Source: Bacteroidota bacterium
GTDB taxonomy: Bacteria; Bacteroidota; Bacteroidia; NS11-12g; UBA9320
Reading direction: 5' to 3'
Length of the DNA stretch: 64,000 nucleotides
Assembly: GCA_013359235.1 (NCBI GenBank)
Contig: JABWCE010000007.1
Location: 26,609 to 90,608, forward strand
The notes beneath the pieces were generated by a model, which saw only the letters and a program-made list of their open reading frames with translations, searched no databases and had not been told where the DNA came from. The position numbers and the translations under genes are program-made. Position 1 is the stretch's first letter, and each line of letters begins with the position of its first letter. This document shows positions 1 to 51,928 of the stretch, piece after piece.

Positions 1-283
1 CAGTTTCCACATGGCAAAACAGCAGGAATAATAACATTTTTGCCTATCAAATTTTTATCTCCATCCACTACTGTTCCGCTTATTTCATGACCAAGAGTTA
101 AGGGAAGAGTTTTTTTGGTTTGTACTCCGTAATGCCAAAAGCTCAAATCTGTATGGCAAACACCGCATCCTGCAACTTTTACAAGCACTTCTCCATCTGC
201 CAATTTTGGAAAATCACAATTTGTTTTGACAAAGTCTTTGTCAGTTTCTATCATTTGCCACTGGTACATTTTATCTATGTGCA
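1..283 (-). CDS. Zn-dependent alcohol dehydrogenase (MDR family), N-terminal part; continues beyond window start
   Basis: Reverse-strand translation from the ATG at 283 reads MHIDKMYQWQ...CGVCHTDLSFWHYG...GHEISGTVVDGDK. It carries the catalytic-Zn GHExxG and CGxCHTD motifs. It sits 4 nt downstream of the previous minus-strand gene. Confidence 0.55.
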
Positions 284-287
284 TTAT

Positions 288-466
288 TTATTTTTTTATA
301 TCATAAAAACATCTGACAGGAGAATACAATTTCCCTTCTGCCATCAATTTTTTTAGAGTTTTATCTACTATTTTTTTATCAATACCTGTAAGTTCAGCTA
401 TTTCGCCTCCTTTAAGTGGTTTGGCAGATTTTGAAATCTGTTTTAATATTTGTTCTGATGCTTCCA
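288..466 (-). CDS. small hypothetical protein, possible winged-helix/HTH
   Basis: Start trimmed to MEASEQILKQ to avoid overlapping the thiolase. The sequence KGGEIAELTGIDKKIVDKTLKKLMAEGKL resembles an HTH recognition segment. It is embedded inside the operon. Confidence 0.3.
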
Positions 467-474
467 TATTTTTT

Positions 475-1737
475 TTATAAATTGATATTTTCAAATAATA
501 CAGCAGTACCCTGCCCACCTCCAATACAGGCAGAGGCTATTCCGTATCTTATATTTTTTCTTTTCATTTCTTTAGCCAGCGTTAATGATAATCTCAAGCC
601 ACTTGCAGCAAGTGGATGTCCTATGGCAATAGCTCCGCCGTTTACATTTAGTTTGTTTCTATCAAGTCCAAGTTCTATTTCGCAACCTATAACCTGCGAT
701 GAAAATGCTTCATTAATTTCAAATAATCCAATTTCGTCTATTTTTAAACCTGTGATTTCTAATAGATATTTTATAGCGGGCACGGGACCGAGTCCCATTA
801 CCTTTGGGTCTATGCCACTAGTAGCTGCAGCTACAACTTTTGCAATGGGATTAATATTTTTCGACTTTACAAAACTGCCAGAAGCTACAATGCCTGCCGC
901 GGCTCCATCTACTATTCCGCTGCAATTTCCGGCTGTTAAAACTCCCACTTCGGCAAAAACATTTGGTAATTTTGATAAAGATTCAAGATTAGTTTCACGT
1001 ATTTGTTCATCGCTGGTAAAATCTTTAACTCCACCCGATAATTTTACTTTTCTTGATTTTAAACCTTCAATTTCAAAAACTGTTGAATTTATTGGTGTTA
1101 TTTCTTCATTCAAAAAACCATTATTTTTAGCAGCAATAGCACGGTTAAACGATAGTAAAGCATATTCGTCACATTGATTACGAGTAATTTTATGTTTTAC
1201 AGCTACATTTTCGGCAGTAAACCCCATTGGATAGCCGGCGGCTGTATCGTCTAATGCTTCCCAAAGCATATCTTTAAATACAGGACGACCAAGCGGATAT
1301 CCCATTCTGTTTCCAAAACTTACTGTAGGAGCAAGTGACATACTTTCGGCTCCACAACACAGGGTTGCGTCTGCTTTGCCAAGTGTAATCTGTTCGGCAG
1401 AAGTTACAATGGTTTCAAAACCTGAGGCACAAATTCTCTGTACCATCAATGCAGGAATAGGCATTGGCAGCCCTGAAAATAGTGCTACATGACGTGGAAA
1501 AAAATATGCATCGCCTGATGATTGACCTATGTTTGCCATTACTGCCTGGTCAATATCAGAGGGTGAAATATTACTATTACTTATTGCAGCTTTGCTTGCA
1601 AAAATTCCAAGATCGGTTGGCGATACATTTGCAAGAGTGCCACAGTATTTGCCAAATGGCGTTCTTGCTCCATTTATAAAAAAAATGTCGTCAAATATTA
1701 TACCTATACCCTTATCTTTTGAGTGAAATGCTTTCAT
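475..1737 (-). CDS. acetyl-CoA C-acyltransferase (thiolase II family)
   Basis: 420 aa. N-terminal FINGARTPFGKY, CASG active-site region and C-terminal GGGQG motif. Full-length thiolase fold. Confidence 0.85.
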   Translation of the reverse strand: MKAFHSKDKGIGIIFDDIFFINGARTPFGKYCGTLANVSPTDLGIFASKAAISNSNISPSDIDQAVMANIGQSSGDAYFFPRHVALFSGLPMPIPALMVQRICASGFETIVTSAEQITLGKADATLCCGAESMSLAPTVSFGNRMGYPLGRPVFKDMLWEALDDTAAGYPMGFTAENVAVKHKITRNQCDEYALLSFNRAIAAKNNGFLNEEITPINSTVFEIEGLKSRKVKLSGGVKDFTSDEQIRETNLESLSKLPNVFAEVGVLTAGNCSGIVDGAAAGIVASGSFVKSKNINPIAKVVAAATSGIDPKVMGLGPVPAIKYLLEITGLKIDEIGLFEINEAFSSQVIGCEIELGLDRNKLNVNGGAIAIGHPLAASGLRLSLTLAKEMKRKNIRYGIASACIGGGQGTAVLFENINL

Positions 1738-1746
1738 TTATTTTTT

Positions 1747-3597
1747 TTAAACTAACTGTTTTGTTTTATTTTTTGATTCTTTAACAACTTCTGTATTTTT
1801 CCATGTTTGTTTTGCTATAATTGCAGCACCAAGCGAAACAACAAATTGAGGAAAATCAATTGTTTTAACTTCTCTATTAAATTTTTTAATTAAAATAGTA
1901 CTCATGTAAGGATGATGTGCAGCAACGCCTCCAATCATAAAAATAGGAATTCCGGGAACCAATCTCATTTTTGCAACTTTGTTTGCTATTGAAATGTAAA
2001 TACCTCTTGCAATATCTTGCATCGGCATTCCGTCAAATACCCAGTTCATAATTTCTGTTTTGGCAAAAACAGTACAAAAACTGTTTAATTCCTTGTCATA
2101 TTCTGAATGTGATGCAAGGTTGCTCATCTCTTCAATTTTTATTTCTGCTCTTTCTGAAATTTCTTCGAGAAAGGCACCGGTTCCGGCAGCACATTTATCA
2201 TTCATATAAAAGTTTGAAACTTGATTATCATTGTTACAATGAATTACTTTTATGTCTTCGCCACCTATATCTATAATATTTTTTTCTCCGTCATAAGAGT
2301 CTGAAACTCCTGCTGCTGCACAATTTATTTCGGTTTTTGTTATATCTGTTTCGGTAAAATGTTTTCTTCCGTATCCTGTAGCACAACTGTATTTTATATT
2401 GAATGATGAATAAATTGCCTTAATTACATTCTTCATTGCATTTCTGTCTTTATTCATGGTATGTACAATATATCTGAAAACAGGCTTTCCTTTCTCATTA
2501 ATAATTGTAAATTTGGTATATGACGAGCCCAGGTCCATTCCAAGAAAACAGTTTTGTTCTCTGTAGTATTGCAAAGGATGATTTTTTTCAACTAAACCTT
2601 TTAAAACGATTTTTTTGGTTAAAGAAGCATCAGCCCCCATGGGTCTATTCATTACGTTTTTATTAGTCATGGCTTTTATCATGTTTGTAAAAGCGAGGTT
2701 TAACGAAGTTTTTACATAATGCTTTTTGCCATATTCAACTATTTTACCATTGAAATAATCAATTTCGGTAGGACGGTTATTTATTAAATCTAAAGCTAAA
2801 GAAGGGAAATGCTCGCCTCCTTTTTTTAGGTATTGCATACACTTGCGGTAAAAATCGTCGGGAAAACGAATTTTTTCTTTTTCGGCAACTTCTATCCCTT
2901 CGTTTATTAATTGTTCAACGAGTTCAACAGTTTCGGGGTCAGACATTGCTTCGGCCATTGTAAGCCTGCCTACACCACAAAGTGGGCTAAGGGATGCGTT
3001 TAAAATTGTTTTTTCCCAAGTGCGTTTTAATATTTCAAACGAATTTATATTTTCTGTTTTAAAATCTACACTGTTTAATAAGTCTGCAAAAGTTTCGGAT
3101 TGTTTGCATCTGTTGTCATCAATAGAGCCTATATAGTTTGGTGGAGTAAAAAATGTAACTTTTACTGTATTAGGCGACATGAGGTTTCCGGCATAATTAA
3201 TAACCATTCTCAAGGTTTTTGATTCGCCAAAAACCGATGCTAAAATCTGTTCGGTATCTATTCCGTTTTGTGCAGCAATAACGGTCAATTTTTCGGAATT
3301 TAAAATTTCTGCTTCCTTTGCGGCGCCGAGTGTTTGGTATGATTTGAGGGCAAATATCAAATAATCAAGTCCCAAATTTCTCATTTCTGTAACAGAACTA
3401 TAAACATGTTCAAATCTGGTAATAGAAGCATATATATTTTCGAGTATTATTCCTTCGCTTATTACCTTTTTCAGTTTAAATTCGTCTTTATCACATAAAG
3501 CTACCTCGCAACCGGCCTCTTTTAACTTTACAGCCATTATCATACCCACAGGACCAATCCCCACTATTCCAACTTTTATTTTTTCTGATTTTTTCAT
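1747..3597 (-). CDS. fusion protein: ketopantoate-reductase-like (ApbA/PanE) NAD(P)-binding domain + BadF/BadG/BcrA/BcrD-type activase ATPase
   Basis: N-terminal ~310 aa begin KIKVGIVGIGPVGMIMAVKLKEAGCEV (Rossmann GxGxxG) with ApbA_C-like helical region. C-terminal ~300 aa carry MDLGSSYTKF...IGGEDIKVI...MNDKCAAGTGAFLE...IGGVAAH, the activase [4Fe-4S]-bridging Cys motif and ATPase motifs. Confidence 0.8.
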   Translation of the reverse strand: MKKSEKIKVGIVGIGPVGMIMAVKLKEAGCEVALCDKDEFKLKKVISEGIILENIYASITRFEHVYSSVTEMRNLGLDYLIFALKSYQTLGAAKEAEILNSEKLTVIAAQNGIDTEQILASVFGESKTLRMVINYAGNLMSPNTVKVTFFTPPNYIGSIDDNRCKQSETFADLLNSVDFKTENINSFEILKRTWEKTILNASLSPLCGVGRLTMAEAMSDPETVELVEQLINEGIEVAEKEKIRFPDDFYRKCMQYLKKGGEHFPSLALDLINNRPTEIDYFNGKIVEYGKKHYVKTSLNLAFTNMIKAMTNKNVMNRPMGADASLTKKIVLKGLVEKNHPLQYYREQNCFLGMDLGSSYTKFTIINEKGKPVFRYIVHTMNKDRNAMKNVIKAIYSSFNIKYSCATGYGRKHFTETDITKTEINCAAAGVSDSYDGEKNIIDIGGEDIKVIHCNNDNQVSNFYMNDKCAAGTGAFLEEISERAEIKIEEMSNLASHSEYDKELNSFCTVFAKTEIMNWVFDGMPMQDIARGIYISIANKVAKMRLVPGIPIFMIGGVAAHHPYMSTILIKKFNREVKTIDFPQFVVSLGAAIIAKQTWKNTEVVKESKNKTKQLV

Positions 3598-3604
3598 TTA
3601 ATTT

Positions 3605-4051
3605 TTATAAATTTTTTATAAAATAAACCTCATCATTTACTTCCTCGCCTCCGAATGATTTATTAAAAATTTCTTTATATTTTTCTATTTCAGATTCAAT
3701 ATTTTCATCAGTATCAATTATTGCAGCATTGACAATTTTATCATCATTGTTTTCAAAAAGCAAATTCACTTTTTTAATGCAACCGGTAAGGCATCTGCCG
3801 AGTTCGTCGAGATCACGAGGGCAAAAACAACCATCGTTTTCGTTTGGTGTTACAAGGTAATCGGGATTTTTGTAAAGGTTTTTGTCAGGAAAAATAAATG
3901 CAATATTTCGGCTATTACCATCTTTATTCAGCACAACGTATTTCACATAATGACAGGTATCTTTAATAAGTTTTTGAACTTCGTCATTAGCTAATTCTCT
4001 TCCGTCAGCAAGCCTGAAAATTTTGTTTTCTTTCAAATTATCAGATTCCAT
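3605..4051 (-). CDS. hypothetical small acidic protein with CxC-x10-C-x3-C motif
   Basis: 148-aa ORF tightly packed (7-nt gaps) between the HgdB-like gene and the activase fusion. Motif GCFCPRDLDELGRCLTGC. Confidence 0.5.
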   Translation of the reverse strand: MESDNLKENKIFRLADGRELANDEVQKLIKDTCHYVKYVVLNKDGNSRNIAFIFPDKNLYKNPDYLVTPNENDGCFCPRDLDELGRCLTGCIKKVNLLFENNDDKIVNAAIIDTDENIESEIEKYKEIFNKSFGGEEVNDEVYFIKNL

Positions 4052-4058
4052 GTTGTTA

Positions 4059-5282
4059 TTATTTATGTACTAAAACTTTATTACTTGTAATTTGCTCAAT
4101 AAAAGTTTCAATTTTGGTAATACTTTGCCCTTCTGAGTAAAATCTTAGGTCGCACAAATCGCCTTCAATTATCAAAGTGGGTATTCCTGTGCTTTCTGTT
4201 AATCTTTGTGGCAAGCCAAATCTGGAGTTTGAGTTGTTTGCACAGGTTTTTGCATCGTGAAATATTACTCCATCAATTTTAAAGGTTTTGCATAAATCAG
4301 TAAGTATATTTTGTTTTGCATTTTCGCTTCTGTTTATAAAAATTTCAGTATATGCTTTTGCTGATGACTCAAATGGATTTTCGGGGTCGAATGCATCAAA
4401 AACCCAACTGTTGCAATAAGTTGAAGCAACTACTGCTGCATTATTTTGTATAAACAAATCTGAAAGTGATCTTAATTTACCCCAGATTGGCATTCCGTCC
4501 CAGTACAAACGGCAACTTTCGCTTTCCAAAAATCCAATACCTTTTGCAACGTTTTCTTCCATTTCTTTTAGCAAAATTGTATAATAATCTTTTGCCTGTT
4601 GAGTTCCTCTTAAAACAACAATAGGACCCATGTGTATTGTAGCATCAAAAAAACTAATTGGCGAAGGTGTGTTAGTAGCAGTATAAAGTACTTTTTTCCA
4701 AAGGTCTGTAGCTTCTTTGCTCAATTTTAAAGTTTCTCTGAATTTATCAATATCAAATTTTTTTCCGCTTACTTCTTCGCAAACAGGTATCATTTTTCTG
4801 AATTGTGCAGCAACATCTTCTATTACTTCTTCTTTTATTTCGTCTAAGTGCCGTGGGGGGTAAATTCCAATAACCGGCACATTGAGTTCGCGACCAAAAT
4901 ATGTAAACCAATCTTGCACTTCTCTGCACTGGTTTGTGTTGTACACAATCAAATCAGGCTTTGGCGGACCTTCAAGACCGTAGTGTTCTTGCAGAGGTGT
5001 TTCTCCTTTAAGATATGAACCAATATCAGCAGTAAGATAAGAGCAAATATCGTTTGAATATCCAAACTTTGCTGATTCGGGAATAAGATCACCTGCTGTA
5101 CGTGTAGCACCGAGTAATGCTCCATGATTTTCGGGAAAATGTACTTCAAAGCCAAATGAACGCAAAAGTTCGGCTGGTCCTACACTTGTACACCATGCTA
5201 TTTTTTTATTTTTATTTTTCATACCGAGGAAATAATTTCCCATTATTTCCTTCATCACTTTTGTACTTTGTATTTTATACAT
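4059..5282 (-). CDS. 2-hydroxyacyl-CoA dehydratase / BcrB-BcrC family protein (HGD-D domain), lone subunit
   Basis: 407 aa. N-terminal KKIAWCTSVGPAELLRSFGFEVHFPENHGALLGA and the overall pattern are typical of the HgdB/YjiM/DCCP family. No paralogous partner gene is adjacent. Confidence 0.75.
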   Translation of the reverse strand: MYKIQSTKVMKEIMGNYFLGMKNKNKKIAWCTSVGPAELLRSFGFEVHFPENHGALLGATRTAGDLIPESAKFGYSNDICSYLTADIGSYLKGETPLQEHYGLEGPPKPDLIVYNTNQCREVQDWFTYFGRELNVPVIGIYPPRHLDEIKEEVIEDVAAQFRKMIPVCEEVSGKKFDIDKFRETLKLSKEATDLWKKVLYTATNTPSPISFFDATIHMGPIVVLRGTQQAKDYYTILLKEMEENVAKGIGFLESESCRLYWDGMPIWGKLRSLSDLFIQNNAAVVASTYCNSWVFDAFDPENPFESSAKAYTEIFINRSENAKQNILTDLCKTFKIDGVIFHDAKTCANNSNSRFGLPQRLTESTGIPTLIIEGDLCDLRFYSEGQSITKIETFIEQITSNKVLVHK

Positions 5283-5287
5283 TTCTT

Positions 5288-7414
5288 TTATAATTTAATT
5301 CTTGCATCTACAGCAACAGCCTTGTCGCTAAAAGCCATTACAGGATTTAAGTCCATTTCTTTTATCTGTGGAAAATCTGTAACGAGTTGAGAAATTCTTT
5401 GAATTATTTCTACTACACTTTTTTTATCAATTCCTAGCTGACCTCTCACTCCGTCTAATAATTTAGCTGATTTTATAGTTGAAAGCATTTCTTGAGCTTC
5501 GGTTTGAGTTACAGGACTGAGTTTAAAAACTACATCTTTCAGCACTTCTACATAAATTCCGCCCATTCCAAACATTATCAAATGCCCTGCATTACTTCCA
5601 GCCGAAACTCCAATTATAAGTTCTTTGCCACCCGGCATAAACTTCTGAACAAGGTATTTTAAATTAGTGCCACTAAAATTTTTATTAATGTTTTGTATTG
5701 CAGTTCTAAGTTCGTCTTTACATTTTATATTTATAACAACTCCGCCTTTATCGCTTTTGTGAACAATTTCGGGCGACTCGGCTTTTACTACAACAGGGTA
5801 TCCTATTTTTGATGATATTTGTTCTGCCTTTTCGTAACTGTCGGCTATTGCCCAGTTTGCAACAGCAATTTTGTACGCTTCTAATATTTTAAAAACATTT
5901 TCGGAAGAAAGAAACTTATCTTTTTCAGAATTTGAAAGAATATTAAAAACAGTACTTTTTTCAACATCATCAAAAACCATAGCCTCTCCAATTTCTCTGC
6001 TTTGTATTTTATGATATTTGTACAATGCCCCCAATGCTTTTGCAGCAGTAGTAGGAAAACTGTAGCATGGCACTCCACCATCTCTCATGATTTTTGCGGT
6101 ATGTTGATACCTTTCAAAACTCAAATTTGTCATAAAATTACAAATTATAGGTTTTTTCTTTTGTTTGCTTACTTCTACAATATTTCTAGCAACTTCGTCG
6201 GTATCAGTAAATGGTGCAGTTACAAAATTTATAAAAACGCTGTCAATATTTTCTTCGTCCATCAGTACATCCAAAGCACTTCTAAAATGAGCTCCACCAC
6301 CTGTTGCTACCACATCTATAGGGTTGCCTATTGTAGCTTCGGGTAATAGAGTGTTTTTTAAAATATTTACTGCTTTTTCGCTCAATGGAGGTATTTCAAG
6401 GCCTGCACTTACAAGTTCATCTGTAGCAATTACTGCAGGACCTCCGGTATTTGTAATTATTCCTACTCTATTACCTTTTGGAATTGGCTGAGTAGAAAAT
6501 GCCATAGCTGCCTGGCACATTTCTTCTTCATTTGTAAATGATAAAACACCGGTTTTTTCAAAAATCAATTCGGTTGAAATATCAACTCCGGCAAGCGAGC
6601 CAGTATGCGAAGCTGCAGCTTTTGCTCCGGCTTCGGTTCTGCCTGATTTCATAGCTAAAATTGGTTTTTTCTTAGCTACTATTTTAGCTGTTTCAAGAAA
6701 TTCTTTTGGATTGTGAAATCCTTCTGTATATAATATTATTGCTTTTGTACCTGTGTCTTGTCCATAATATTCTACCACATCTGATATAGAAATATCGCAG
6801 GCATTGCCATTTGAGGCATACATTCTCATCCCTATATCCAAATCGAAAAGACTCTGCATAATAAATGCTCCCACTCCACCGCTAAGGGCTACAATAGAAA
6901 TGGTTCCGGGCTTTGGAAATGTGAACGTAAAATCACAATAAGCATTGTAGTCAGGGTCGCAATTTATTATTCCCTGGCAATTGGGTCCGAAAATACGAAC
7001 TCCGTATTTTTTTGCATTTTCAAGAAAAGCATTTTGCAATGCTACTCCTTCATCGCCCATTTCGCTGAAACCTGCCGAATTTATTATTACCGATTTTATT
7101 CCTTTTTTTCCGCAATCTTCAATTATTTGTGGTACAAATTTGCTTGGTATTATTACATGTGCAAGGTCAATTTCATCGGGTACATCAAAAATTGATGGAT
7201 ATGCTTTGATACCTCTAATCTCCGGTTCTTTGGGATTTATAGGATAAATTTTGCCAGTATAATTGAAATGAATTAGATTTTTGGTGATGACATTACCAAT
7301 TGATAACTCTTTTGAAGAAGCACCAATGATAGCTATTGATTTGGGCTTAAAAAGAGTATCCAACTCGTGTTTAATAGACATTTGCTTACTTGCAATTGAA
7401 TTTTGAACTCCCAT
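5288..7414 (-). CDS. acyl-CoA synthetase (NDP/ADP-forming), fused alpha-beta type
   Basis: 708 aa. N-terminal CoA-binding Rossmann (SIAIIGASSKELSIGNV), succinyl-CoA-synthetase-like middle region, C-terminal ATP-grasp_5 (GYPVVVKAESPEIVHKSDKGGV). Confidence 0.8.
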   Translation of the reverse strand: MGVQNSIASKQMSIKHELDTLFKPKSIAIIGASSKELSIGNVITKNLIHFNYTGKIYPINPKEPEIRGIKAYPSIFDVPDEIDLAHVIIPSKFVPQIIEDCGKKGIKSVIINSAGFSEMGDEGVALQNAFLENAKKYGVRIFGPNCQGIINCDPDYNAYCDFTFTFPKPGTISIVALSGGVGAFIMQSLFDLDIGMRMYASNGNACDISISDVVEYYGQDTGTKAIILYTEGFHNPKEFLETAKIVAKKKPILAMKSGRTEAGAKAAASHTGSLAGVDISTELIFEKTGVLSFTNEEEMCQAAMAFSTQPIPKGNRVGIITNTGGPAVIATDELVSAGLEIPPLSEKAVNILKNTLLPEATIGNPIDVVATGGGAHFRSALDVLMDEENIDSVFINFVTAPFTDTDEVARNIVEVSKQKKKPIICNFMTNLSFERYQHTAKIMRDGGVPCYSFPTTAAKALGALYKYHKIQSREIGEAMVFDDVEKSTVFNILSNSEKDKFLSSENVFKILEAYKIAVANWAIADSYEKAEQISSKIGYPVVVKAESPEIVHKSDKGGVVINIKCKDELRTAIQNINKNFSGTNLKYLVQKFMPGGKELIIGVSAGSNAGHLIMFGMGGIYVEVLKDVVFKLSPVTQTEAQEMLSTIKSAKLLDGVRGQLGIDKKSVVEIIQRISQLVTDFPQIKEMDLNPVMAFSDKAVAVDARIKL

Positions 7415-7433
7415 TATTTTTTATGTAAAGCTA

Positions 7434-8270
7434 TCAGGCTACAACTGCCTGTTTTTCTTTAAGTTTTATATGTCTGAAACCGCCCCATAATGCAGCACCA
7501 ATTGCACCTGCATAAATTGCATCAGGATGAGAATGTATTTGATATGATTTTCCCATCTCTTCAAGTTGCTCTTCAAGAGCTTGTATCATACCTTTATTTA
7601 AAGCCATTCCACCTGTAACAACAATGGGCGATTCGGCTTTTAGCGAACTTAAAAGTTTTAGTATTCTGTTGGCAATTGAGATATGAATTCCTTTTATAAT
7701 ATCGGGAGTTGAAATTCCTCTCGAAACCATATTTATAACATCAGTTTCGGCAAGAACAGCACATATTCCTGAAGAAATTTCGGGATTTTGTGATTGCATT
7801 GATACATCGCCAACTTCTTCAATTGAAAGTCCTAAATATCTTGAAATATTTTCAACAAACTGCCCCGATCCCGAAGCACATTGTCCAGTCATTTTGTAAT
7901 CGTAAACTCTTGCATCTTCAGATATTTTTATTGCTCTTACATAAAGTGCTCCCATATCTACCACGGTAATTGCATTGGGGTATAGAAAATGGGCGCCTTT
8001 TGCATGAGTAGTCATTCCATAAAAATGTCCTCTTTTTCTTTTTACCAAATCACCCTCGCCTGTTGAAGCAAAGTAGGCAATATCTTCGTATTTGAGGTTG
8101 TGTTTTGATAGCATTTTCTGAGTCATTTCTTCTGCAACCTGCGATGGATCGCGTTTTCTTATCTTTTCGGTGTGTTTGTCTATAAGTTTGGGATTATCAG
8201 AATAATCAACAAGTACTAATTTTATGAAATTAGACCCAACATCAATCCCCATTGTATAAAAATTTTCCAT
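7434..8270 (-). CDS. BadF/BadG/BcrA/BcrD-family ATPase, short form (BcrD/activase-like)
   Basis: 278 aa. MGIDVGSNFIKLVLVD, MTGQCASGSGQFVE Cys motif and GGMALN. Lacks the insertion seen in the upstream paralog. Confidence 0.8.
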   Translation of the reverse strand: MENFYTMGIDVGSNFIKLVLVDYSDNPKLIDKHTEKIRKRDPSQVAEEMTQKMLSKHNLKYEDIAYFASTGEGDLVKRKRGHFYGMTTHAKGAHFLYPNAITVVDMGALYVRAIKISEDARVYDYKMTGQCASGSGQFVENISRYLGLSIEEVGDVSMQSQNPEISSGICAVLAETDVINMVSRGISTPDIIKGIHISIANRILKLLSSLKAESPIVVTGGMALNKGMIQALEEQLEEMGKSYQIHSHPDAIYAGAIGAALWGGFRHIKLKEKQAVVA

Positions 8271-8287
8271 ATCTATTATTTATTAAT

Positions 8288-9712
8288 CTATTGAATTGCT
8301 TCTTGTGTTTTTTTATTTGAAGGAAGGTCGGCACTAATGTTTCTTCTGGCAAACATTGCTCCTCCCAAAGCGCCCATAAATATTGAATCAGTATGAATAT
8401 TTATTGTTATATCATTGCCGTAATTGTCTCTTACAAGCTGGGTAAGATATTTGATAACAGCAGGATTTCTGGCAACTCCTCCGGTAAATGTAAACTCGTT
8501 GAAAACACCACCCGAACGTGCTATAAGCGACATTGCACGCATAATAATTGCTTTGTGCAAGCCACCGAGTATATCTTCACGTTTTTCGCCAAGGTTTGTA
8601 AGTTCTCTAAGTTCTGCACCTGCAAAAACTGTACATGTTGAGCAAATATTTACTTCCTTTTGAGCTTCCATTGCCATTGGTCCAAGTTCGTTTAACGAAA
8701 TACTCATCTCGTCGGCAATATACCCAAGGTATCTGCCACATCCAGCAGCACAGCGGTCGTTCATTTGAAATGATGTTACAAGTCCATATTTATCAACCTG
8801 TATTGCTTTTGTATCTTGCCCGCCAATGTCGAGTACTGTTCTTGTGTCAGGAAAAACAGCATGTGCCCCAAATGCATGGCACAATATTTCGGAACGAATA
8901 CATTCTTGAGGGAAGGGCAATAATGCTCTGCCATAGCCTGTACCGGTCATATTTTCGATATGAAATTCGAGATCGGCAATGTCGTCAATATGAGAACGAA
9001 GTGTTTCTGAAACCTGGTCAAAATTTCCTTTCAGCAAATTCATTTCTGCATCAAAGTTTATACTTTCGTTTTCGGCTACTGTATCGGGCAAGTTTTTGTA
9101 TTTTTCTTTAAGCTCAACCATAGCTTTGTGTACCAGTTCTTTGAAATCGAATTTAATTCTTTCGTTTTCGGCCGGAGAAATACTTTTGTCCCAAACGGTC
9201 ATTAGTGGCTCGAAAAGTGCCATTTCTAATTTGTTTACTTCTTCGTTGTATTTTTCTGATACAATATCTCTGAAAAACTGATTTTTTTCACCCAGATTGT
9301 TGTACAAATAATCGTGCTTTATTTTTGGTTTAAAGGCTTTGCGAATGTTTCTTAAATGACCTAGAATTTCATTTTTTTGTTCATCGTTTTTAAAAAAATT
9401 GTTGCAAGTTTTTACTAGTTCATCGCCCAATTTATCTAGTTTTATTTTAAATTGTTCGTATTGAAATACACTTTCGAGGTCTGAAATGTATTTTTTGTAT
9501 TCGGGTTTCGAAATTATTTCTTTTTCAAGGTTTTTTTTAAGAATTGAAAATCTAGCATTGTATGTAGCTTCATCTCTTGCTATATCGGCTGCTACAGAAT
9601 AATTTGCACGGGTGTTTGTAATACCTCTACCTATTATTTCGTCTTGCTCGTTGATAATTACAGCTTTTGAAGTTGTGGAGCCGAGGTCAACTCCAAGATA
9701 ATATTTGCTCAT
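8288..9712 (-). CDS. BadF/BadG/BcrA/BcrD-family ATPase, long form with ~190-aa helical insertion (BcrA/BadF-like)
   Basis: 474 aa. YYLGVDLGSTTSKAVII, then a long charged insertion, then IGGQDTKAIQV, MNDRCAAGCGRYLG and TGGVARN. The size and insertion position match the large ATPase subunit of class-I benzoyl-CoA reductases. Confidence 0.75.
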   Translation of the reverse strand: MSKYYLGVDLGSTTSKAVIINEQDEIIGRGITNTRANYSVAADIARDEATYNARFSILKKNLEKEIISKPEYKKYISDLESVFQYEQFKIKLDKLGDELVKTCNNFFKNDEQKNEILGHLRNIRKAFKPKIKHDYLYNNLGEKNQFFRDIVSEKYNEEVNKLEMALFEPLMTVWDKSISPAENERIKFDFKELVHKAMVELKEKYKNLPDTVAENESINFDAEMNLLKGNFDQVSETLRSHIDDIADLEFHIENMTGTGYGRALLPFPQECIRSEILCHAFGAHAVFPDTRTVLDIGGQDTKAIQVDKYGLVTSFQMNDRCAAGCGRYLGYIADEMSISLNELGPMAMEAQKEVNICSTCTVFAGAELRELTNLGEKREDILGGLHKAIIMRAMSLIARSGGVFNEFTFTGGVARNPAVIKYLTQLVRDNYGNDITINIHTDSIFMGALGGAMFARRNISADLPSNKKTQEAIQ

Positions 9713-9725
9713 TTTATTATTTTTT

Positions 9726-11027
9726 TTAAACTGTTACTGATTCTTGTGATAAAATTATTTTACGTTGCTCAAGCATTTGAAAATACGATTCAAGTCTGTT
9801 TTTAATATTTGCATACGAAAAATACCTTGGGTCAACAAGGTCGCTTTCAATAAAACCAACCGGAACGCCAGTGCGTTGTTCTATTTCACGCATTATCATA
9901 AGTTGCCCTGCAGAAAATGAATTGCATGATTTAATTGAGTTAATCAAAAATCCGTCAGCTTGATATTCTTTTACATATTTTTCTATGAGATCAACCCTTT
10001 GTGGAAGGTTTAGATTGGTATAACAACCCATACAATATGTAGCAAGGCTTTCGAGTGGCTCTTCGGGGTTTTGGCGATATCCTAAATCATAAACACCGCC
10101 TACTTTTGTATAAGTAGATGCTACAATTACAGCACCCATATCATAAAATATTTTCCAAAATTCGCGGAAGTTTGTCCAGTTGGGAGGTCCTTCTACTACA
10201 AGACGGAAGCGTTCTTTTTGCATTTCGCCTTCTGGGGTTACCGGAAGTAATTTTTTTTCAGCTCTGTCTTTTATTTCGTGATAAAGTTCTTTGTAATATT
10301 CAAGACATTCGTCTGACCCTCTAAAGGCGGTATTTATAGGACCCATGTAATAAACTCCGGCAAAATACGCATCAATTGGCGATGGTTTGATTTTGGCAAG
10401 TTGCAATACTTTTACCCAGTAATCTTCTGATTGAACCGAGTTGCTCAATAGTTTGCTTAATCTGGCAGAATCAAATTTTTTACCTGATACTTTTTCAAAT
10501 TTTGGCAAAACTTCTTCTTTTAGTTGTTTCACCATATAATCAATTTGTTCTTTTGTTATTTTGCCATCTTCCTGATATGGTGTGTGCAACATTGCTATTT
10601 CGGCATTTGGATAAAGTCTGTTGAGATTTTCAAACCATTTTAGAAATGTAAAACATCCTGTATAGCTCAAAAGTAGCAAATCTGGCTCGGGAAGTTTTTC
10701 TCCTGTAGGACCTATATTTCCGTTTAACATCATTCCTATATCGCATTTCACATAAGTACATACATCTTCTGAATGACCCATTTTTTCGGCATCTTTTATA
10801 TACCCGCCCGATTTTTTTCTCATACCCGATTGTAAAGCGTTAATCTCGGGATATACCGGAAGCATATCGAATGACAAAATGAGTTCTATCAAGTTGCCGG
10901 GGACAAACGTATAACAAACTTTTTTGCCTGTTTCTTTTGCTTTGCTAAGGTCATTAAATTGTTTAGCGAGCATTTCTTTTTGAATAATCATGCTCTTTTC
11001 TTTTACTGCATCTTTTGGATTTGCCAT
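9726..11027 (-). CDS. HgdA/HgdB-BcrB/BcrC family subunit (BcrB-like, 433 aa)
   Basis: HGD-D-type sequence (KKVCYTFVPGNLIELILSFDMLPVYPE, conserved Cys). Paralogous to the next gene. Confidence 0.7.
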   Translation of the reverse strand: MANPKDAVKEKSMIIQKEMLAKQFNDLSKAKETGKKVCYTFVPGNLIELILSFDMLPVYPEINALQSGMRKKSGGYIKDAEKMGHSEDVCTYVKCDIGMMLNGNIGPTGEKLPEPDLLLLSYTGCFTFLKWFENLNRLYPNAEIAMLHTPYQEDGKITKEQIDYMVKQLKEEVLPKFEKVSGKKFDSARLSKLLSNSVQSEDYWVKVLQLAKIKPSPIDAYFAGVYYMGPINTAFRGSDECLEYYKELYHEIKDRAEKKLLPVTPEGEMQKERFRLVVEGPPNWTNFREFWKIFYDMGAVIVASTYTKVGGVYDLGYRQNPEEPLESLATYCMGCYTNLNLPQRVDLIEKYVKEYQADGFLINSIKSCNSFSAGQLMIMREIEQRTGVPVGFIESDLVDPRYFSYANIKNRLESYFQMLEQRKIILSQESVTV

Positions 11028-11076
11028 ATTCTTTAATCTTTTAAAATTTCTACTGCTTTTTCAAATTTATGTTTTT

Positions 11077-12240
11077 TTATGCCCAAAGTTTTATCGAGTC
11101 TGAAAATGTTCCGGCTTGTTCTTTTATTACTTTAAACTGCCCTGTATTTTCGTGATATTGGAAGTTTATATGCGGAACACCTGCCGCATCACATTCTTTT
11201 TGCATTTCGGGGCGGTCTAACAGAGCTGGGTCGCAAAAACTTGCAGCCGAAAATATAACACCATCAGCTTCTCTTCTTTTTACAAGTTCTACAAGTCTTT
11301 TACCTTTTGGATTTCCTACATCGTAATAGCACGAAGCAAAAGTACTTTGGTTGAGATATGCTTTTGTGATAGCTTCGAGGGGGTCGTTGGTATCTTCTTC
11401 AATATCTCCTTGTATCCATCGTGAGCCAAGCATAAAATCGTCGTCAACAATGTAGCATCCAGCCATTTCTATTGATTTTATTAATCCCACTGGCGGTTGT
11501 TCGCAAAACGAGCCTGAAACCACAACTCTAATATTATCCATTGCCTCGCCTCTTTCATTTCTTATTACATTTAATATTTTCTGAAGCATTTCATTGTGTT
11601 CTTCTACTGTAATGCAAATACCGGCTCTAAGAATATGATATGTTTCTACTGCCGAAAGCCTCCAAGGATATTTTTGCCTTATGTCGTAAATCTCTTCTAT
11701 TAACCTTCTGTTTATATTGTAAAGTTTTATTGCTTTATTAAGACCGTCAACACTTGCTTTTACACCATTTACATTGTAAATATCATCTATTACTTTTTCC
11801 ATTTCATGTTTGTAAAATGTACCTCCTATAAATGGGTCAAAGTTTTGTGCATAATCAAAATATCTTTGAAATTTACCTTTTTTTGACAACTTAAACATAC
11901 CTGATAGATTTCTTACGCAATCGCAAATTGCAGGAAATAAAAACCCATCAAAACCATTTAGATTATTATCCAAAGCCATTTCAATTATTCCACGAGGCAA
12001 ATGACAAATGTAAGATTGATAATATGCATCGCCTTTAATAATTTGTTTGCGGTCGCCTGTACCCATAATTCCCACAGCTATACCATTGGCTGCATGAATT
12101 ATTTCTCGAGGAACATATATTGGCAGATATCCAACAATTACTCTTTTTTCATCTTTGCTTTTCCATTGTTTTGCATGAGTAAATTCGAGGTCGAATGCTG
12201 TTTTTTCGCACCACGATAATATTTCTTCTAAACTATTCAT
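11077..12240 (-). CDS. HgdA/HgdB-BcrB/BcrC family subunit (BcrC-like, 387 aa)
   Basis: HGD-D-type sequence (VIVGYLPIYVPREIIHAANGIAVGIMG...ICDCVRNL). First gene of the operon. Confidence 0.7.
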   Translation of the reverse strand: MNSLEEILSWCEKTAFDLEFTHAKQWKSKDEKRVIVGYLPIYVPREIIHAANGIAVGIMGTGDRKQIIKGDAYYQSYICHLPRGIIEMALDNNLNGFDGFLFPAICDCVRNLSGMFKLSKKGKFQRYFDYAQNFDPFIGGTFYKHEMEKVIDDIYNVNGVKASVDGLNKAIKLYNINRRLIEEIYDIRQKYPWRLSAVETYHILRAGICITVEEHNEMLQKILNVIRNERGEAMDNIRVVVSGSFCEQPPVGLIKSIEMAGCYIVDDDFMLGSRWIQGDIEEDTNDPLEAITKAYLNQSTFASCYYDVGNPKGKRLVELVKRREADGVIFSAASFCDPALLDRPEMQKECDAAGVPHINFQYHENTGQFKVIKEQAGTFSDSIKLWA

Positions 12241-12281: not shown

Positions 12282-12289
12282 CAAATTTA
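12282..12289 (-). promoter_or_regulatory. candidate Bacteroidota -7 element (TAAATTTG on minus strand) upstream of the bcrC-like gene
   Basis: Matches TAnnTTTG about 45 nt upstream of the ATG at 12240, in the 154-bp intergenic region after rsfS. Confidence 0.25.
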
Positions 12290-12394
12290 TTTTTGTTTAG
12301 TTTGCAATGTAATGATTAAAATCATGCTTAAACAGTTGAACTTTAATCAGCTTTAATTGTTTAAAAAGAAAAGGTTTCTGATTTTTAAGGTTTT

Positions 12395-12817: not shown

Positions 12818-13582
12818 ATGACACATTCTTTTTTTGAAAAAATAACTTTTTATTATTTTGATGAAACAGATTCTACAAACGATTTAGCAAATTTGCTTCT
12901 TAAACAAAACAAAGCAGAAAATGGCGATGTAATTGTTACAAAATTTCAAACCAAAGGAAAAGGACAATCGGGCAGCAATTGGTTTTCTGAAAGAGATAAA
13001 AGTGTTTTGATTTCGCTTATTTGCAAAGAAATAAATATAGATATTTCAATGCTCACAACAATAAATATGCTTGTTTCGCTAGCCTTATCAAAAACAATAA
13101 AAATTTATCTGCAAAATGAAAATATTAAAATAAAGTGGCCAAATGATATTTATGTAAACAATAAAAAAATTTCGGGTATTTTGATTGAAAGTAATATAAT
13201 TGGTGATACATTAAAAAATATAATAATAGGGATTGGGATAAATGTGAACCAAGATAATTTTCCCGACTTATTGCCCCTTGCCTGTTCTTTTTATACAATT
13301 TCTAACAAAAAGTTTGACACTAATGAAATAACAGGTGTTTTAATTGACAATTTGAACAAGCAACTTGCAGAAATTAAATATTTTGACTTAGAAAAAATTA
13401 AAAGCGAATACGAGTCACAATTATACGGCAAAGATGAGAGTAAGCAGTTTATTAGTAATGGCAAATCATTCGAAGGTACAATAAAAGGAATAAATAAAAA
13501 TGGGCAATTAGAAGTATTAGTAAATAATAATTTAGAAATTTTTAACAATAAAGAAATAGAATTTGTACGGAGCAGTAATTGA
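12818..13582 (+). CDS. birA: biotin--[acetyl-CoA-carboxylase] ligase
   Basis: 254 aa. GKGQSGSNWFS and KWPNDIYVNNKKISGIL motifs of BPL/LPL catalytic domain. Confidence 0.8.
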   Translation: MTHSFFEKITFYYFDETDSTNDLANLLLKQNKAENGDVIVTKFQTKGKGQSGSNWFSERDKSVLISLICKEINIDISMLTTINMLVSLALSKTIKIYLQNENIKIKWPNDIYVNNKKISGILIESNIIGDTLKNIIIGIGINVNQDNFPDLLPLACSFYTISNKKFDTNEITGVLIDNLNKQLAEIKYFDLEKIKSEYESQLYGKDESKQFISNGKSFEGTIKGINKNGQLEVLVNNNLEIFNNKEIEFVRSSN

Positions 13583-14279
13583 CATAGGGAACACACGCAT
13601 AAAAGCGGCAATTTTTGAAAATGATATTTTAAAAAAGAAATTTGATTTTGAAAATTTTAACGACCTTATATTATTCGTCAAACAATTTACAGTAGATATA
13701 CCTGTAATAATTTCGGATGTAACAAGCAGCGATATTAATTCGTTAAATGCTTATATCAAAAAACTTATAATTTTGGATTGTAAAACTCCTATACCCATAA
13801 AAAATAATTATAAAACTCCTGATACTCTCGGTTACGACAGACTTGCTGCAGCAATTGGAGCTTCAGCAAAATATAAAAATGAAAACGTACTTGTGATAGA
13901 TATGGGAACTTGCATAAAATACGATTTTATAAATGAAAAACTTGAATACTACGGGGGTAGCATTTCTCCGGGTCTTGAAATAAAATTTCAAGCACTTAAC
14001 CACTTTACACAAAAACTACCACTTGAAAATAAAAACTATGAATTTTCGCTAATTGGAACTACAACTTCCGAAGCAATTGTAAACGGTGTAATGAATGGAA
14101 CTCTTGCCGAAATAAATGGTATTATACAAGAATATAAAATTACATACCCAAACATAAAAGTTGTAATAACCGGAGGTGATATGTTGTATTTTGCAGATAA
14201 AATTAAAGGAGTGATATTTGCAGACCCCGATTTGGTATTCAAAGGGCTTTACGAAGTATTAAAATATAATGTTAAATAA
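13563..14279 (+). CDS. coaX: type III pantothenate kinase
   Basis: VIDIGNTRIKAAIFEND N-terminus, GYDRLAAAIGA and ITGGD motifs. Overlaps the end of birA. Confidence 0.85.
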   Translation: MYGAVIDIGNTRIKAAIFENDILKKKFDFENFNDLILFVKQFTVDIPVIISDVTSSDINSLNAYIKKLIILDCKTPIPIKNNYKTPDTLGYDRLAAAIGASAKYKNENVLVIDMGTCIKYDFINEKLEYYGGSISPGLEIKFQALNHFTQKLPLENKNYEFSLIGTTTSEAIVNGVMNGTLAEINGIIQEYKITYPNIKVVITGGDMLYFADKIKGVIFADPDLVFKGLYEVLKYNVK

Positions 14280-51800: not shown

Positions 51801-51928
51801 TTGTAGGTGGTGTAATTCCTGAAAAAGATTACAAAGCACTTTACAAGGCTGGGGCACATTTTATTTTTGGACCAGGTACCAATATTTCAAAAGCAGCAAG
51901 CGATGTATTAATGAAGTTGCTTGAATGA
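48860..51928 (+). CDS. methylmalonyl-CoA mutase, single-chain form: N-terminal MutA-like (beta-subunit-like) domain fused to the full catalytic subunit with C-terminal B12-binding domain
   Basis: 1022 aa. Residues ~1-360 resemble a cofactor-less MutA TIM barrel ([29 protein letters not shown]). Then the canonical MutB ([37 protein letters not shown]). The C-terminal Rossmann carries the B12 motif QDGHDRG. The ATG overlaps the glyQS stop (TAATG). Confidence 0.8.

Follow-up and report, generated by a model that had tools for sequence, protein, structure and literature searches.

To our knowledge, nearly all work on class I benzoyl-CoA reductases (BCRs) concerns Proteobacteria that denitrify or grow phototrophically. 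The class I enzyme is a heterotetramer: one dimer binds ATP and carries a bridging [4Fe-4S] cluster, and the other, composed of HGD-D subunits, is catalytic (PMC11971306). The bcrABCD genes have been reported for Krumholzibacteriota (PMC10936416), and a Flavobacteriales metagenome-assembled genome from a benzene/nitrate reactor was found to express enzymes of anaerobic benzoyl-CoA degradation (PMC8099898). Here we analyze a 64,000-nucleotide stretch of a Bacteroidota genome (GenBank assembly GCA_013359235.1, contig JABWCE010000007.1, positions 26,609 to 90,608), called the window below, and a ring-reduction operon at its left end that is likely to contain an embedded module of the 2-hydroxyacyl-CoA dehydratase type. 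In the searchable literature, BCR in Bacteroidota taxa receives passing mentions only, and none of them concerns the embedded module. The characterized 2-hydroxyacyl-CoA dehydratases are, as far as we know, all alpha-beta heterodimers. In the phenyllactyl-CoA dehydratase FldABC, the CoA-activating component FldA is itself a subunit of the dehydratase (PMC13416013).

The operon resembles the clusters of Thauera aromatica and Magnetospirillum in its four-subunit class I reductase with the C-B-A-D gene order, in its Dch/Had/Oah modified beta-oxidation, and in co-encoding a 2x[4Fe-4S] carrier and a 2-oxoacid:ferredoxin oxidoreductase (OFOR); T. aromatica carries a comparable fdx/korAB arrangement beside its pathway genes. 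It differs from the Thauera cluster in several respects. The host is a low-GC (∼33%) member of the Bacteroidota and not a denitrifying proteobacterium, BcrA and Dch are divergent, and an ADP-forming acyl-CoA synthetase (ACD), or in relatives an unusual ligase resembling long-chain fatty acyl-CoA synthetases, stands where a benzoate-CoA ligase would be. The OFOR of this strain is of the four-subunit VorB type, and a HadB-like protein (HgdX), a fusion of a ketopantoate reductase (PanE)-family domain with an activase, a ligase remnant (p148), and a thiolase are encoded between bcrD and had.

The embedded module shares with HadBC/HadI of Clostridioides difficile (3O3M) the HadB fold, three aligned cysteines, a two-Cys activase, and a co-encoded 2-oxo-acid reductase, and with FldABC/FldI of Clostridium sporogenes a CoA-activating component that is seemingly tied to the dehydratase, as judged from the retention of p148. 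Unlike both systems, it has no HadC/FldC-type beta subunit, has a synthetase or ligase in place of the CoA-transferase, joins its activase in one polypeptide to a domain of the ketopantoate reductase family where those systems have a separate D-2-hydroxyacid dehydrogenase, and belongs to an aromatic-ring operon, not to one for Stickland-type fermentation. A single HGD-D protein with one dedicated ATPase and no second catalytic subunit nearby is also the arrangement of the double-cubane cluster protein (DCCP) with DCCP-R (6ENO, 7YYL) and of YjiM/YjiL; HgdX, in contrast to DCCP, lacks the 7-Cys motif and is structurally farther from that protein than from HadB. BzdNO (8S02) and MbdONPQ (9G87, 9GAI) are further members of the BCR/HAD radical enzyme family, and BcrB of the window aligns over its full length with MbdO.

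Results

The operon and its predicted benzoyl-CoA reductase

Gene coordinates for window positions 1-12240 were obtained from an open reading frame (ORF) listing with direct translation, which gave eleven co-directional minus-strand genes filling this interval in the order bcrC, bcrB, bcrA, bcrD, ACD, hgdX, p148, PanE-activase, thiolase, helix-turn-helix (HTH), and had (Table 1). From bcrC to had, the intergenic gaps were 49, 13, 17, 19, 5, 7, 7, 9, 7, and 3 bp. An original prediction, made from the letters and the ORF list alone, had arrived at the same gene count and strand with a gap range of 4-49 bp, which we measured as 3-49 bp, and every gene family that it named was recovered with Pfam and NCBIfam. 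It had the small HTH gene and the thiolase gene in swapped positions; the actual order is PanE-activase, thiolase, 59-aa HTH, and Zn-alcohol dehydrogenase. Its expectation that the operon continues past position 1 was borne out by a 57-kb Logan contig (L001; SRR20608311), retrieved through an exact-protein look-up with the window thiolase as query, that showed 0 mismatches to the window across 11,737 shared bp. L001 supplied the rest of the had gene and, at gaps of 4-85 bp, six further genes on the same strand (oah, the gene for a 77-aa 2x[4Fe-4S] protein, those for the OFOR alpha, beta, and gamma subunits, and dch), followed by opposite-strand genes. The operon totals 17 genes over ∼17.7 kb, the block in the window being its first two thirds.

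Subunit identity was judged by the NCBIfam equivalog cut-offs for Thauera-type BCR. Scores above the cut-off were obtained for BcrC with TIGR02263 benz_CoA_red_C (456.7 versus 421.15), for BcrB with TIGR02260 benz_CoA_red_B (680.8 versus 486.55), and for BcrD with TIGR02261 benz_CoA_red_D (320.7 versus 312.85). The top match of BcrA was TIGR02259 benz_CoA_red_A, covered from position 3 to 432 of the 432 in the profile at a score of 439.8 (cut-off 578), and Pfam BcrAD_BadFG matched residues 6-455 with an E value of 1.3e-66. Two HGD-D catalytic subunits and two BcrAD_BadFG ATPases are accordingly encoded side by side, separated by the first three of the gaps listed above. Among 39-54 orthologs per subunit, the invariant cysteines were Cys79, Cys106, Cys246, Cys262, and Cys336 of BcrC (39 orthologs); Cys90, Cys95, Cys125, Cys332, Cys335, and Cys368 of BcrB; Cys321, Cys325, Cys357, and Cys360 of BcrA, within the motifs CAAGCG and CSTC; and exactly two, Cys131 and Cys170, of BcrD (54 orthologs). 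The iron-sulfur cluster cysteines expected of a class I reductase appear to be present in all four subunits, with individual ligands assigned by alignment. By the published definition, the predicted system is a BCR-type class I reductase together with a Dch/Had/Oah branch.

Other family assignments were tried for these subunits and rejected. With the HadB and HadC models, BcrC, BcrB, and BcrD scored 154-202 bits against cut-offs of 700-750. Unlike the Aromatoleum enzyme that includes BzdNO, the proteins scored only 86-141 bits with the Bzd-type models, for which the cut-offs are 380-454 (BzdN, 86.4 versus 453.8; BzdO, 106.4 versus 448.6; BzdQ, 141/109 versus 380.2). The solved structure closest to BcrB by sequence was MbdO of 3-methylbenzoyl-CoA reductase (9g87_A, E 3.5e-56).

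The predicted lower pathway and electron supply

The had fragment within the window scored 114.2 bits with TIGR03201 over profile positions 1-90, and the full 352-aa Had from L001 reached 461.3 (cut-off 338.65). A ring-opening crotonase had been called absent from the block; it is encoded by oah, 22 bp past had and just outside the window, and its product scored 586.4 with TIGR03200 (cut-off 464.45). The statement that the sole crotonase inside the window is that at 37146-37916 was correct. A Rhodopseudomonas palustris Bad-type assignment was rejected, as the 360-aa crotonase scored 120.4 with the BadI model TIGR03210, for which the cut-off is 467.6. The Dch-like protein, a 257-aa crotonase, had TIGR03189 as its top match (207.3; cut-off 292.5), and the position of dch after oah is kept in most of the related loci. 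With BcrC, BcrB, BcrD, Had, and Oah all passing their equivalog cut-offs, the earlier claim of an aryl-CoA pathway of the benzoyl-CoA type is upheld, and its small slips over gene order, subunit type, and taxonomic order do not alter this.

The OFOR alpha subunit fits the VorB-type subfamily (528.6 versus a cut-off of 399). Its identification as a phenylglyoxylate oxidoreductase was rejected, with 35-77 bits for the PadG, PadI, and PadE models against cut-offs of 300-700. The thiolase scored 390.5 with TIGR01930 (cut-off 240.55), the BktB and 3-oxoadipyl-CoA thiolase models following below their cut-offs, and its gene adjoins the 3' side of the PanE-activase fusion gene in nearly all related loci. 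The 59-aa HTH protein had no match in NCBIfam, and its gene is restricted to the closest relatives (L005, L022, and L067).

HgdX, a single HadB-like protein

HgdX was compared with the PDB and the NCBIfam models, a set that contains neither HgdA nor FldB nor LcdA. Within that set, the PDB sequence search returned HadB first (3o3m_A, E 3.8e-51) and then MbdO (E 3.3e-37). The AlphaFold2 (AF2) model of HgdX (predicted local distance difference test, pLDDT, 78.7) matched HadB 3o3m_A in Foldseek with template modeling (TM) scores of 0.89/0.91 at 28% identity, followed by MbdO (0.85), BzdO (0.82), DCCP (0.76), and beta-type subunits (∼0.70). Cys80, Cys119, and Cys347 align with three cysteines conserved in HadB, which are presumably the cluster ligands of that protein; among 69 HgdX orthologs, residues Cys31, Cys80, Cys119, Cys290, and Cys347 were invariant and Cys168 and Cys377 nearly so. 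The label HgdB-like in the original prediction holds for membership of the HGD-D family but not for the beta type, since sequence and fold both place HgdX with the alpha-type proteins HadB and BcrB. HgdX thus has the three cysteines and the HadB-like fold of an alpha subunit, and no heterodimer could be assembled from the genes found. Likewise, in L089, a related locus described below, no second HGD-D gene was found within 10 kb.

The three plus three invariant or nearly invariant cysteines of HgdX had raised the idea of a double-cubane protein of the DCCP/YjiM type. This assignment was rejected, as NF040772 gave 59.9 against a cut-off of 350 and the cysteine spacing does not follow the 7-Cys motif CX19CX18-19CX29CX166-170CX32-34CX32C of DCCP (PMC7317905). 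An unusual cluster of some other kind is possible in HgdX, judging from these residues.

The PanE-activase fusion, the synthetase, and p148

The ketoreductase part of the fusion protein spans residues ∼1-315 and the activase part residues ∼350-600, and both exceeded their cut-offs (TIGR00745, 160.8 versus 141.35; TIGR00241 CoA_E_activ, 167.9 versus 125.4 over residues 352-594). In 78 orthologs, the GxGPVG motif, the lysine of WeKTiLN, and the glutamate of TEIDY of the PanE domain were at least 98% conserved, and Cys469 and Cys508 of the activase were invariant, as for a dedicated activator. Fusions of this kind are rare, with ∼3-5 representatives at 50% clustering of 1.84 billion proteins.

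The nearest NCBIfam and PDB relatives of the ACD were ADP-forming 4-hydroxybutyrate- and 3-hydroxypropionate-CoA ligases (8wzu_A, E 1.6e-134). No CoA-transferase was found in the operon or the related loci, which carry an ADP-forming synthetase or an AMP-forming ligase instead.

The original prediction had listed p148 as a Cys-motif protein. The motif is there, and the protein can now be identified as a stand-alone homolog of the C-terminal domain of an AMP-forming ligase. The window copy itself has no Pfam or NCBIfam match, and a PDB sequence search with it returned nothing meaningful. Half of its homologs (7 of 14), however, matched Pfam AMP-binding_C_3 (best E 2.5e-7), the top Foldseek matches of its AF2 model (pLDDT 63.8) were nearly all adenylate-forming enzymes, and blastp aligned it with residues 418-569 of the 581-aa AMP-forming ligase of L087 (E 2e-29), a ligase encoded directly upstream of hgdX. 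The two proteins have the motif CH...GCFCPR...G(R/K)CL.GC in common. The lysine segment of the ligase (LTPSMKVAPR) is deleted in p148, which also has no N-terminal adenylation domain and so is not a full ANL ligase; its invariant residues are Cys33, His34, Cys75, Cys77, Cys87, and Cys91.

Table 1 Features of the operon and its upstream region, with window coordinates unless L001 is given.
Feature	Length	Coordinates	Strand	Basis
Candidate Bacteroidetes-type -7 promoter element TAAATTTG		12282..12289	-	41 nt upstream of bcrC ATG, read from sequence
bcrC-like catalytic subunit, HGD-D	387 aa	11077..12240	-	Pfam HGD-D E 2.4e-67; TIGR02263
bcrB-like substrate-binding catalytic subunit	433 aa	9726..11027	-	TIGR02260
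bcrA-like long ATPase subunit, BcrA-type insertion	474 aa	8288..9712	-	Pfam BcrAD_BadFG, TIGR02259
bcrD-like short ATPase subunit	278 aa	7434..8270	-	TIGR02261
Fused alpha-beta ADP-forming acyl-CoA synthetase (ACD)	708 aa	5288..7414	-	CoA_binding_2, Succ_CoA_lig, Ligase_CoA_2, ATP-grasp_5
HgdX, alpha-type HGD-D protein, HadB-like	407 aa	4059..5282	-	PDB sequence search, Foldseek
p148, stand-alone AMP-ligase C-terminal domain remnant	148 aa	3605..4051	-	Pfam matches of homologs, fold search, blastp
Ketopantoate-reductase-family NAD(P)H ketoreductase fused to HAD/BCR-type activase	616 aa	1747..3597	-	ApbA, ApbA_C, BcrAD_BadFG
Thiolase	420 aa	475..1737	-	Pfam Thiolase_N + Thiolase_C; TIGR01930
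HTH protein	59 aa	288..467	-	Translation; weak Pfam HTH_11 on identical L001 gene
had 5' end, 6-hydroxycyclohex-1-ene-1-carbonyl-CoA dehydrogenase	94 codons	1..284	-	TIGR03201; runs off window
oah, crotonase, 6-oxocyclohex-1-ene-1-carbonyl-CoA hydrolase	360 aa	L001 12535-13617	had strand	TIGR03200
2x[4Fe-4S] ferredoxin-like protein	77 aa	L001, 85 bp after oah	had strand	
OFOR alpha, beta, and gamma	360, 258, and 183 aa	L001, between 77-aa protein and dch	had strand	

Distribution and architectures among relatives

One genome per GTDB species was scanned with the fusion protein, which gave 144 matches; the best 80 loci were kept, and their synteny was read by tblastn and ORF mapping. Almost all of the kept loci came from metagenome-assembled genomes of Bacteroidota, with a few from Ignavibacteria or Chlorobiota. 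The relatives carry the labels Flavobacteriales (Vicingaceae, Crocinitomicaceae, Parvicellaceae), Chitinophagales, Saprospiraceae, and Lewinellaceae, and the isolate names of many point to lakes, reservoirs, groundwater, and reactors. The original prediction had spoken of other Bacteroidales, a label for which there was no support, as the relatives are labeled Bacteroidia, Chitinophagales, or Flavobacteriales. It had also named synteny as a check on the operon, and the order bcrCBAD-[activating enzyme]-hgdX-panE/activase-thl-had-oah-dch was indeed found in nearly all 80 loci. Because the same order recurs so widely, the arrangement is far beyond chance.

Two architectures were distinguished by the activating enzyme. 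In 37 loci, a full-length AMP-forming ligase of ∼580 aa is encoded upstream of hgdX; in 27 loci, the ACD gene occupies that position and a ligase remnant of 147-173 aa is encoded downstream. The exception, L066, has the order BcrD, 181-aa remnant, ACD, HgdX, and fusion, with the remnant at the old ligase position, and is an apparent evolutionary intermediate in the replacement of the ligase by the ACD. The identity of HgdX to the window copy was 72-91% in the ACD loci versus 64-70% in the ligase loci, without overlap, and both the high- and low-identity classes of BcrA and BcrB occur in either architecture. Since HgdX identity splits by activating enzyme and that of BcrA and BcrB does not, we conclude that the evolution of HgdX is coupled to that of the activating enzyme and not to that of the reductase. 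To judge from these gene arrangements, the Cys-rich ligase domain seems to be required for its own sake.

In L089 and L091, the ACD, HgdX, PanE, and activase are encoded by separate genes in the absence of bcr, next to genes for a caprolactamase-like pair, a pyridoxal phosphate-dependent enzyme, RidA, an AcrC-like acyl-CoA dehydrogenase, and a B12 mutase. When metagenomes were scanned for unfused relatives of PanE in order to sample surroundings without bcr, only two loci were recovered, both of the L089 type. Frequent additions to the clusters were a FadB-like 3-hydroxyacyl-CoA dehydrogenase/hydratase (665-672 aa) and a two-subunit KorAB-type OFOR. In many relatives (for example, L090 9418-18672), a set of genes divergent from bcrC encodes MocA-like, XdhC-like, and SDR proteins; then a fused 928-aa HcrC-HcrA-like molybdenum enzyme whose best NCBIfam matches were the alpha (825 versus a cut-off of 994) and gamma models of 4-hydroxybenzoyl-CoA reductase; and then an HcrB-like flavin adenine dinucleotide (FAD) subunit, a hemerythrin, and a NarK-like nitrate/nitrite transporter. 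None of the Hcr-like, MocA/XdhC/SDR, and NarK-like genes was found in the 64-kb window.

Several further gene arrangements were observed in the related loci. A caprolactamase/acetophenone-carboxylase-family pair and RidA are encoded after the HgdX module in L025 (12654-19409), L029, L030, L051, L057, and L089; the pair scored 667 and 396 bits, below the cut-offs, and is found both within bcr clusters and in the bcr-less L089. The same L025-type stretches hold an AcrC/Acd-like acyl-CoA dehydrogenase and an HMG-CoA (3-hydroxy-3-methylglutaryl-CoA)-synthase-like/BbsA-like protein. In L071 (10001-13115) and L072, the PanE-activase and thiolase genes form an isolated pair with no hgdX or bcr within 10 kb and with unrelated neighbors (PASTA, type IX secretion system-tail, and pseudouridine synthase proteins). 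A gene for a protein of ∼380 aa lies between bcrA and bcrD in L045 (3914-5059), L070, L075, and L087 (6110-7252), an unusual case of a gene splitting two ATPase subunit genes; Pfam finds saccharopine-dehydrogenase domains in the L087 copy, NCBIfam gives no match for that of L045, and a similar ∼380-aa ORF lies between bcrC and bcrB in L035 and L052. L060 holds two genes for Por_Secre_tail (type IX secretion sorting) proteins within the catabolic cluster (2235-3335 and 13057-14238).

Upstream sequences and the remainder of the window

The element TAAATTTG upstream of bcrC fits TAnnTTTG, which we take to be the Bacteroides -7 promoter consensus. A sigma-70 scan of the operon gave promoter-like counts equal to those in shuffled sequences, that consensus not being applicable to Bacteroidota, and terminator-like sites in the operon were mostly intragenic and only modestly more numerous than in shuffles (22 versus 14 ± 4). 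Farther upstream of bcrC, at window positions 12328-12364, lies an AT-rich imperfect inverted repeat, TTAAACAGTTGAA / TTTAATTGTTTAA, with its arms 11 nt apart, which may be a regulator site or a chance occurrence. No Rfam family reached its gathering score in the 64-kb window, and no tRNA, riboswitch, or other known RNA was identified there.

From 12.3 to 64 kb, the window contains Bacteroidota housekeeping genes (SusC/D, ExbBD/TonB, LptC, LpxK, FtsH, and DnaJ/GrpE). The minus-strand crotonase at 37146-37916 shows 41% identity to the FadB-like protein of related bcr clusters in the hydratase domain of the latter and is flanked by a WD40-repeat gene and DUF1573 genes. A plus-strand ORF of 1022 aa at 48860-51928, ∼37 kb from the operon, unites MM_CoA_mutase and B12-binding domains in a single chain and is a fused acyl-CoA mutase.

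Discussion

The best overall explanation of these data is probably a ring-reduction operon with an embedded module of the 2-hydroxyacyl-CoA dehydratase type, although the parts of this explanation differ in strength. On equivalog matches and synteny, we are highly confident that the core corresponds to a complete Thauera-type class I benzoyl-CoA degradation pathway. BcrCBAD would reduce benzoyl-CoA to cyclohexa-1,5-diene-1-carbonyl-CoA, with ATP hydrolysis by BcrA and BcrD powering electron transfer; the donor would be the co-encoded 2x[4Fe-4S] protein, re-reduced by the co-encoded OFOR. Dch is predicted to hydrate the diene, Had to oxidize the 6-hydroxy group, and Oah to open the ring to 3-hydroxypimelyl-CoA, with the thiolase acting in the subsequent beta-oxidation.

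For the embedded module, a CoA-transferase-independent 2-hydroxyacyl-CoA dehydratase route is somewhat better than an even choice. The PanE-like domain would reduce a 2-oxo acid to the (R)-2-hydroxy acid, the ACD (or the AMP-forming ligase in most relatives) would convert this to its CoA ester, and HgdX, activated by the PanE-fused activase, would dehydrate the 2-hydroxyacyl-CoA to an enoyl-CoA. Most related clusters also encode a FadB-like 3-hydroxyacyl-CoA dehydrogenase/hydratase, in support of such a route. By the precedent of FldABC, and with p148 retained beside hgdX after the ligase was replaced, p148 is probably an accessory subunit that stays attached to the dehydratase and may bind metal. 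The substrate is a more tentative matter, and an aromatic one (arylpyruvate/aryl-lactate) is a possibility that we favor without much confidence. In the preferred chain, phenyllactyl-CoA would yield cinnamoyl-CoA and, after hydration, oxidation, and thiolysis by the thiolase, benzoyl-CoA and acetyl-CoA, so that the one activating enzyme of the cluster would feed the reductase. We favor it because a single activating enzyme is encoded in the cluster and a benzoate-CoA ligase is not, because the nearest characterized ACDs use hydroxy acids, and because relatives add an Hcr-like enzyme suited to the 4-hydroxy series. A route from phenylpyruvate through cinnamoyl-CoA to benzoyl-CoA has been proposed for another anaerobe (PMC13416013).

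Several observations weigh against this explanation. In the core, neither BcrA nor Dch reaches its curated cut-off, and no canonical benzoate-CoA ligase is encoded in the cluster. In the module, HgdX scored 221 with the HadB equivalog model (cut-off 750) and is not a HadB ortholog, and it has no beta-type partner, the only other HGD-D genes of the operon being bcrB and bcrC. The operon of the window has no FadB-like protein for the conversion of cinnamoyl-CoA to benzoylacetyl-CoA, no aminotransferase is encoded in the cluster, and the thiolase and the FadB-like protein are explained equally well by oxidation of 3-hydroxypimelyl-CoA. The neighbors of the bcr-less module in L089 and L091 hint at an aliphatic amino-acid substrate.

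This last point belongs to the alternative that the module is a separate route for aliphatic 2-hydroxy acids (such as lactyl-CoA to acryloyl-CoA, or 2-hydroxybutyryl-CoA to crotonyl-CoA). It would then act as a reductive sink for electrons or as a branch of amino-acid catabolism, its genes being located and regulated together with those of the ring pathway. L089 and L091 have the module but no bcr, the same accessory genes recur in L025, L029, L030, L051, and L057, and the nearest characterized ACDs work on short hydroxy acids. We nevertheless regard this alternative as unlikely, although worth keeping in view: carriers of the fused PanE-activase, the protein used for the search, nearly always have the module inside bcr clusters, the metagenome scan added just the two unfused loci, no electron transfer flavoprotein genes are nearby, and L089 HgdX belongs to the ACD-type identity class (75%) and so looks derived from a bcr cluster.

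The reductase could also be a genuine class I enzyme with another aryl- or alicyclic-CoA substrate, such as methyl-, hydroxy-, or halobenzoyl-CoA. The similarity of BcrB to MbdO, the score of BcrA, the lack of a classical benzoate-CoA ligase, and the 4-hydroxybenzoyl-CoA-reductase-like enzyme of relatives, which suggests hydroxylated inputs, would agree with this proposal. We consider it improbable, however, as MbdO is apparently the sole B-type subunit of the Thauera (permanently heterotetrameric) type among solved structures, which leaves that match with little to say, BcrB lies ∼200 bits above its cut-off, and the equivalogs passed by Had and Oah are those of the unsubstituted intermediates. 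Of similar improbability is the proposal that the PanE-like domain supplies the otherwise missing 3-hydroxypimelyl-CoA dehydrogenase, feeding the adjacent thiolase, and that HgdX and the activase catalyze a reaction different from the dehydration of a 2-hydroxyacyl-CoA, for instance a radical elimination from, or reduction of, a ring CoA ester. The fusion and thiolase genes are almost constant neighbors and in L071 and L072 stand together as a pair on their own, no other 3-hydroxyacyl-CoA dehydrogenase was found in the operon of the window, and HgdX also resembles the B/O subunits of reductases (TM scores of 0.82-0.85). Against this, every relative of the PanE domain is a 2-oxo-acid reductase from the ketopantoate reductase family, and a FadB-like dehydrogenase is already present in most clusters. 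Dehydratase operons pair a 2-oxo-acid reductase with an activase, as in ldhA-hadI and fldH-fldI, and the fusion mirrors this pairing.

A further proposal has the HgdX module running the hydroxyglutarate pathway in reverse and linking the lower pathway to electron supply. Glutaconyl-CoA derived from glutaryl-CoA would be hydrated to (R)-2-hydroxyglutaryl-CoA and converted to 2-hydroxyglutarate with a gain of ATP through the ACD; the PanE domain would then form 2-oxoglutarate, from which the OFOR would reduce ferredoxin for the reductase, each ring yielding one 2-oxoglutarate and hence two electrons. The stoichiometry would fit exactly, the operon contains an OFOR and many relatives have KorAB-type OFORs, ADP-forming synthetases are reversible, and an Acd/AcrC-like acyl-CoA dehydrogenase is encoded beside the module in several loci. 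This loop is nonetheless a poor prospect. Most clusters have an AMP-forming, effectively irreversible ligase in the position of the ACD, and the co-evolution of the ligase domain with HgdX favors the direction from acid to CoA ester; moreover, no glutaryl-CoA dehydrogenase was found in the operon of the window, and the OFOR alpha subunit matches the VorB-type subfamily and not the 2-oxoglutarate equivalog.

Whether the 17 genes form one operon was judged from spacing and synteny, which suggest a single transcript. The 49-bp gap between bcrC and bcrB and the 85-bp gap between oah and the ferredoxin gene outside the window could hold internal promoters, and the modules recombine in evolution, as expected of separate transcription units. 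Such a division has little probability, given that all gaps in the window are at most 49 bp with 8 of 10 under 18 bp, that strand and order are conserved across loci, and that the sole terminator-like site at a junction (L001 11223-11236, thl/HTH) is weak, the overall count of such sites being that compared with shuffles above.

The original prediction had opposed to the ring pathway a scenario in which all components belong to amino-acid-fermentation clades; that scenario suits the sub-module of ACD, HadB-like protein, and PanE-activase but fails for the core, a genuine BCR pathway that coexists with it. Its full form, in which all HGD-D and activase genes are of the fermentative Hgd/Had/Fld type and no ring is reduced, is very improbable: every catalytic subunit is a Pfam HGD-D protein, one of the three (HgdX) is truly HadB-like, and the ACD and PanE domain suit a 2-hydroxy-acid route, but BcrC, BcrB, and BcrD exceed the BCR cut-offs while falling far short of those for HadC and HadB, two differing ATPase subunits including the long BcrA type are encoded, Had and Oah pass their equivalogs and, with Dch, have no role in 2-hydroxy-acid fermentation, and the had, oah, and dch genes are syntenic in nearly all 80 loci.

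The reductase itself is not new, being of a known pathway kind that is recognized by reference models. The novelty lies partly in where and how broadly it occurs, among uncultured Bacteroidota and their relatives, but mainly in the conserved accessory module. It is possible, if less than an even chance, that HgdX, the PanE-fused activase, and the Cys/His-rich ligase domain constitute a new branch of the BCR/HAD family with a single catalytic subunit that is obligatory in aromatic degradation by Bacteroidota, Ignavibacteria, and Chlorobiota. Such a branch might form a self-contained metabolon that converts aromatic 2-oxo acids derived from Phe or Tyr, with no CoA-transferase involved, to benzoyl-CoA precursors of the cinnamoyl-CoA type, or it might run a 2-oxoglutarate/ferredoxin loop that covers the cost of ring reduction. 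If a new branch is indeed present, the operon would represent a new peripheral or energy-coupling route, and uncultured freshwater Bacteroidota would be significant anaerobic degraders of aromatic compounds. The conserved insertion, with its beta-less HadB-like enzyme, ketoreductase-fused activase, and Cys-rich ligase domain that outlived replacement of the ligase, is a target for enzymology; its study could bring to light a reaction or a mode of assembly that is new to the BCR/HAD radical enzymes and could explain how ring reduction is fed or fueled. The breadth of its distribution suggests that a large unstudied guild in anoxic waters mineralizes aromatic rings that derive from lignin, humic matter, or amino acids.

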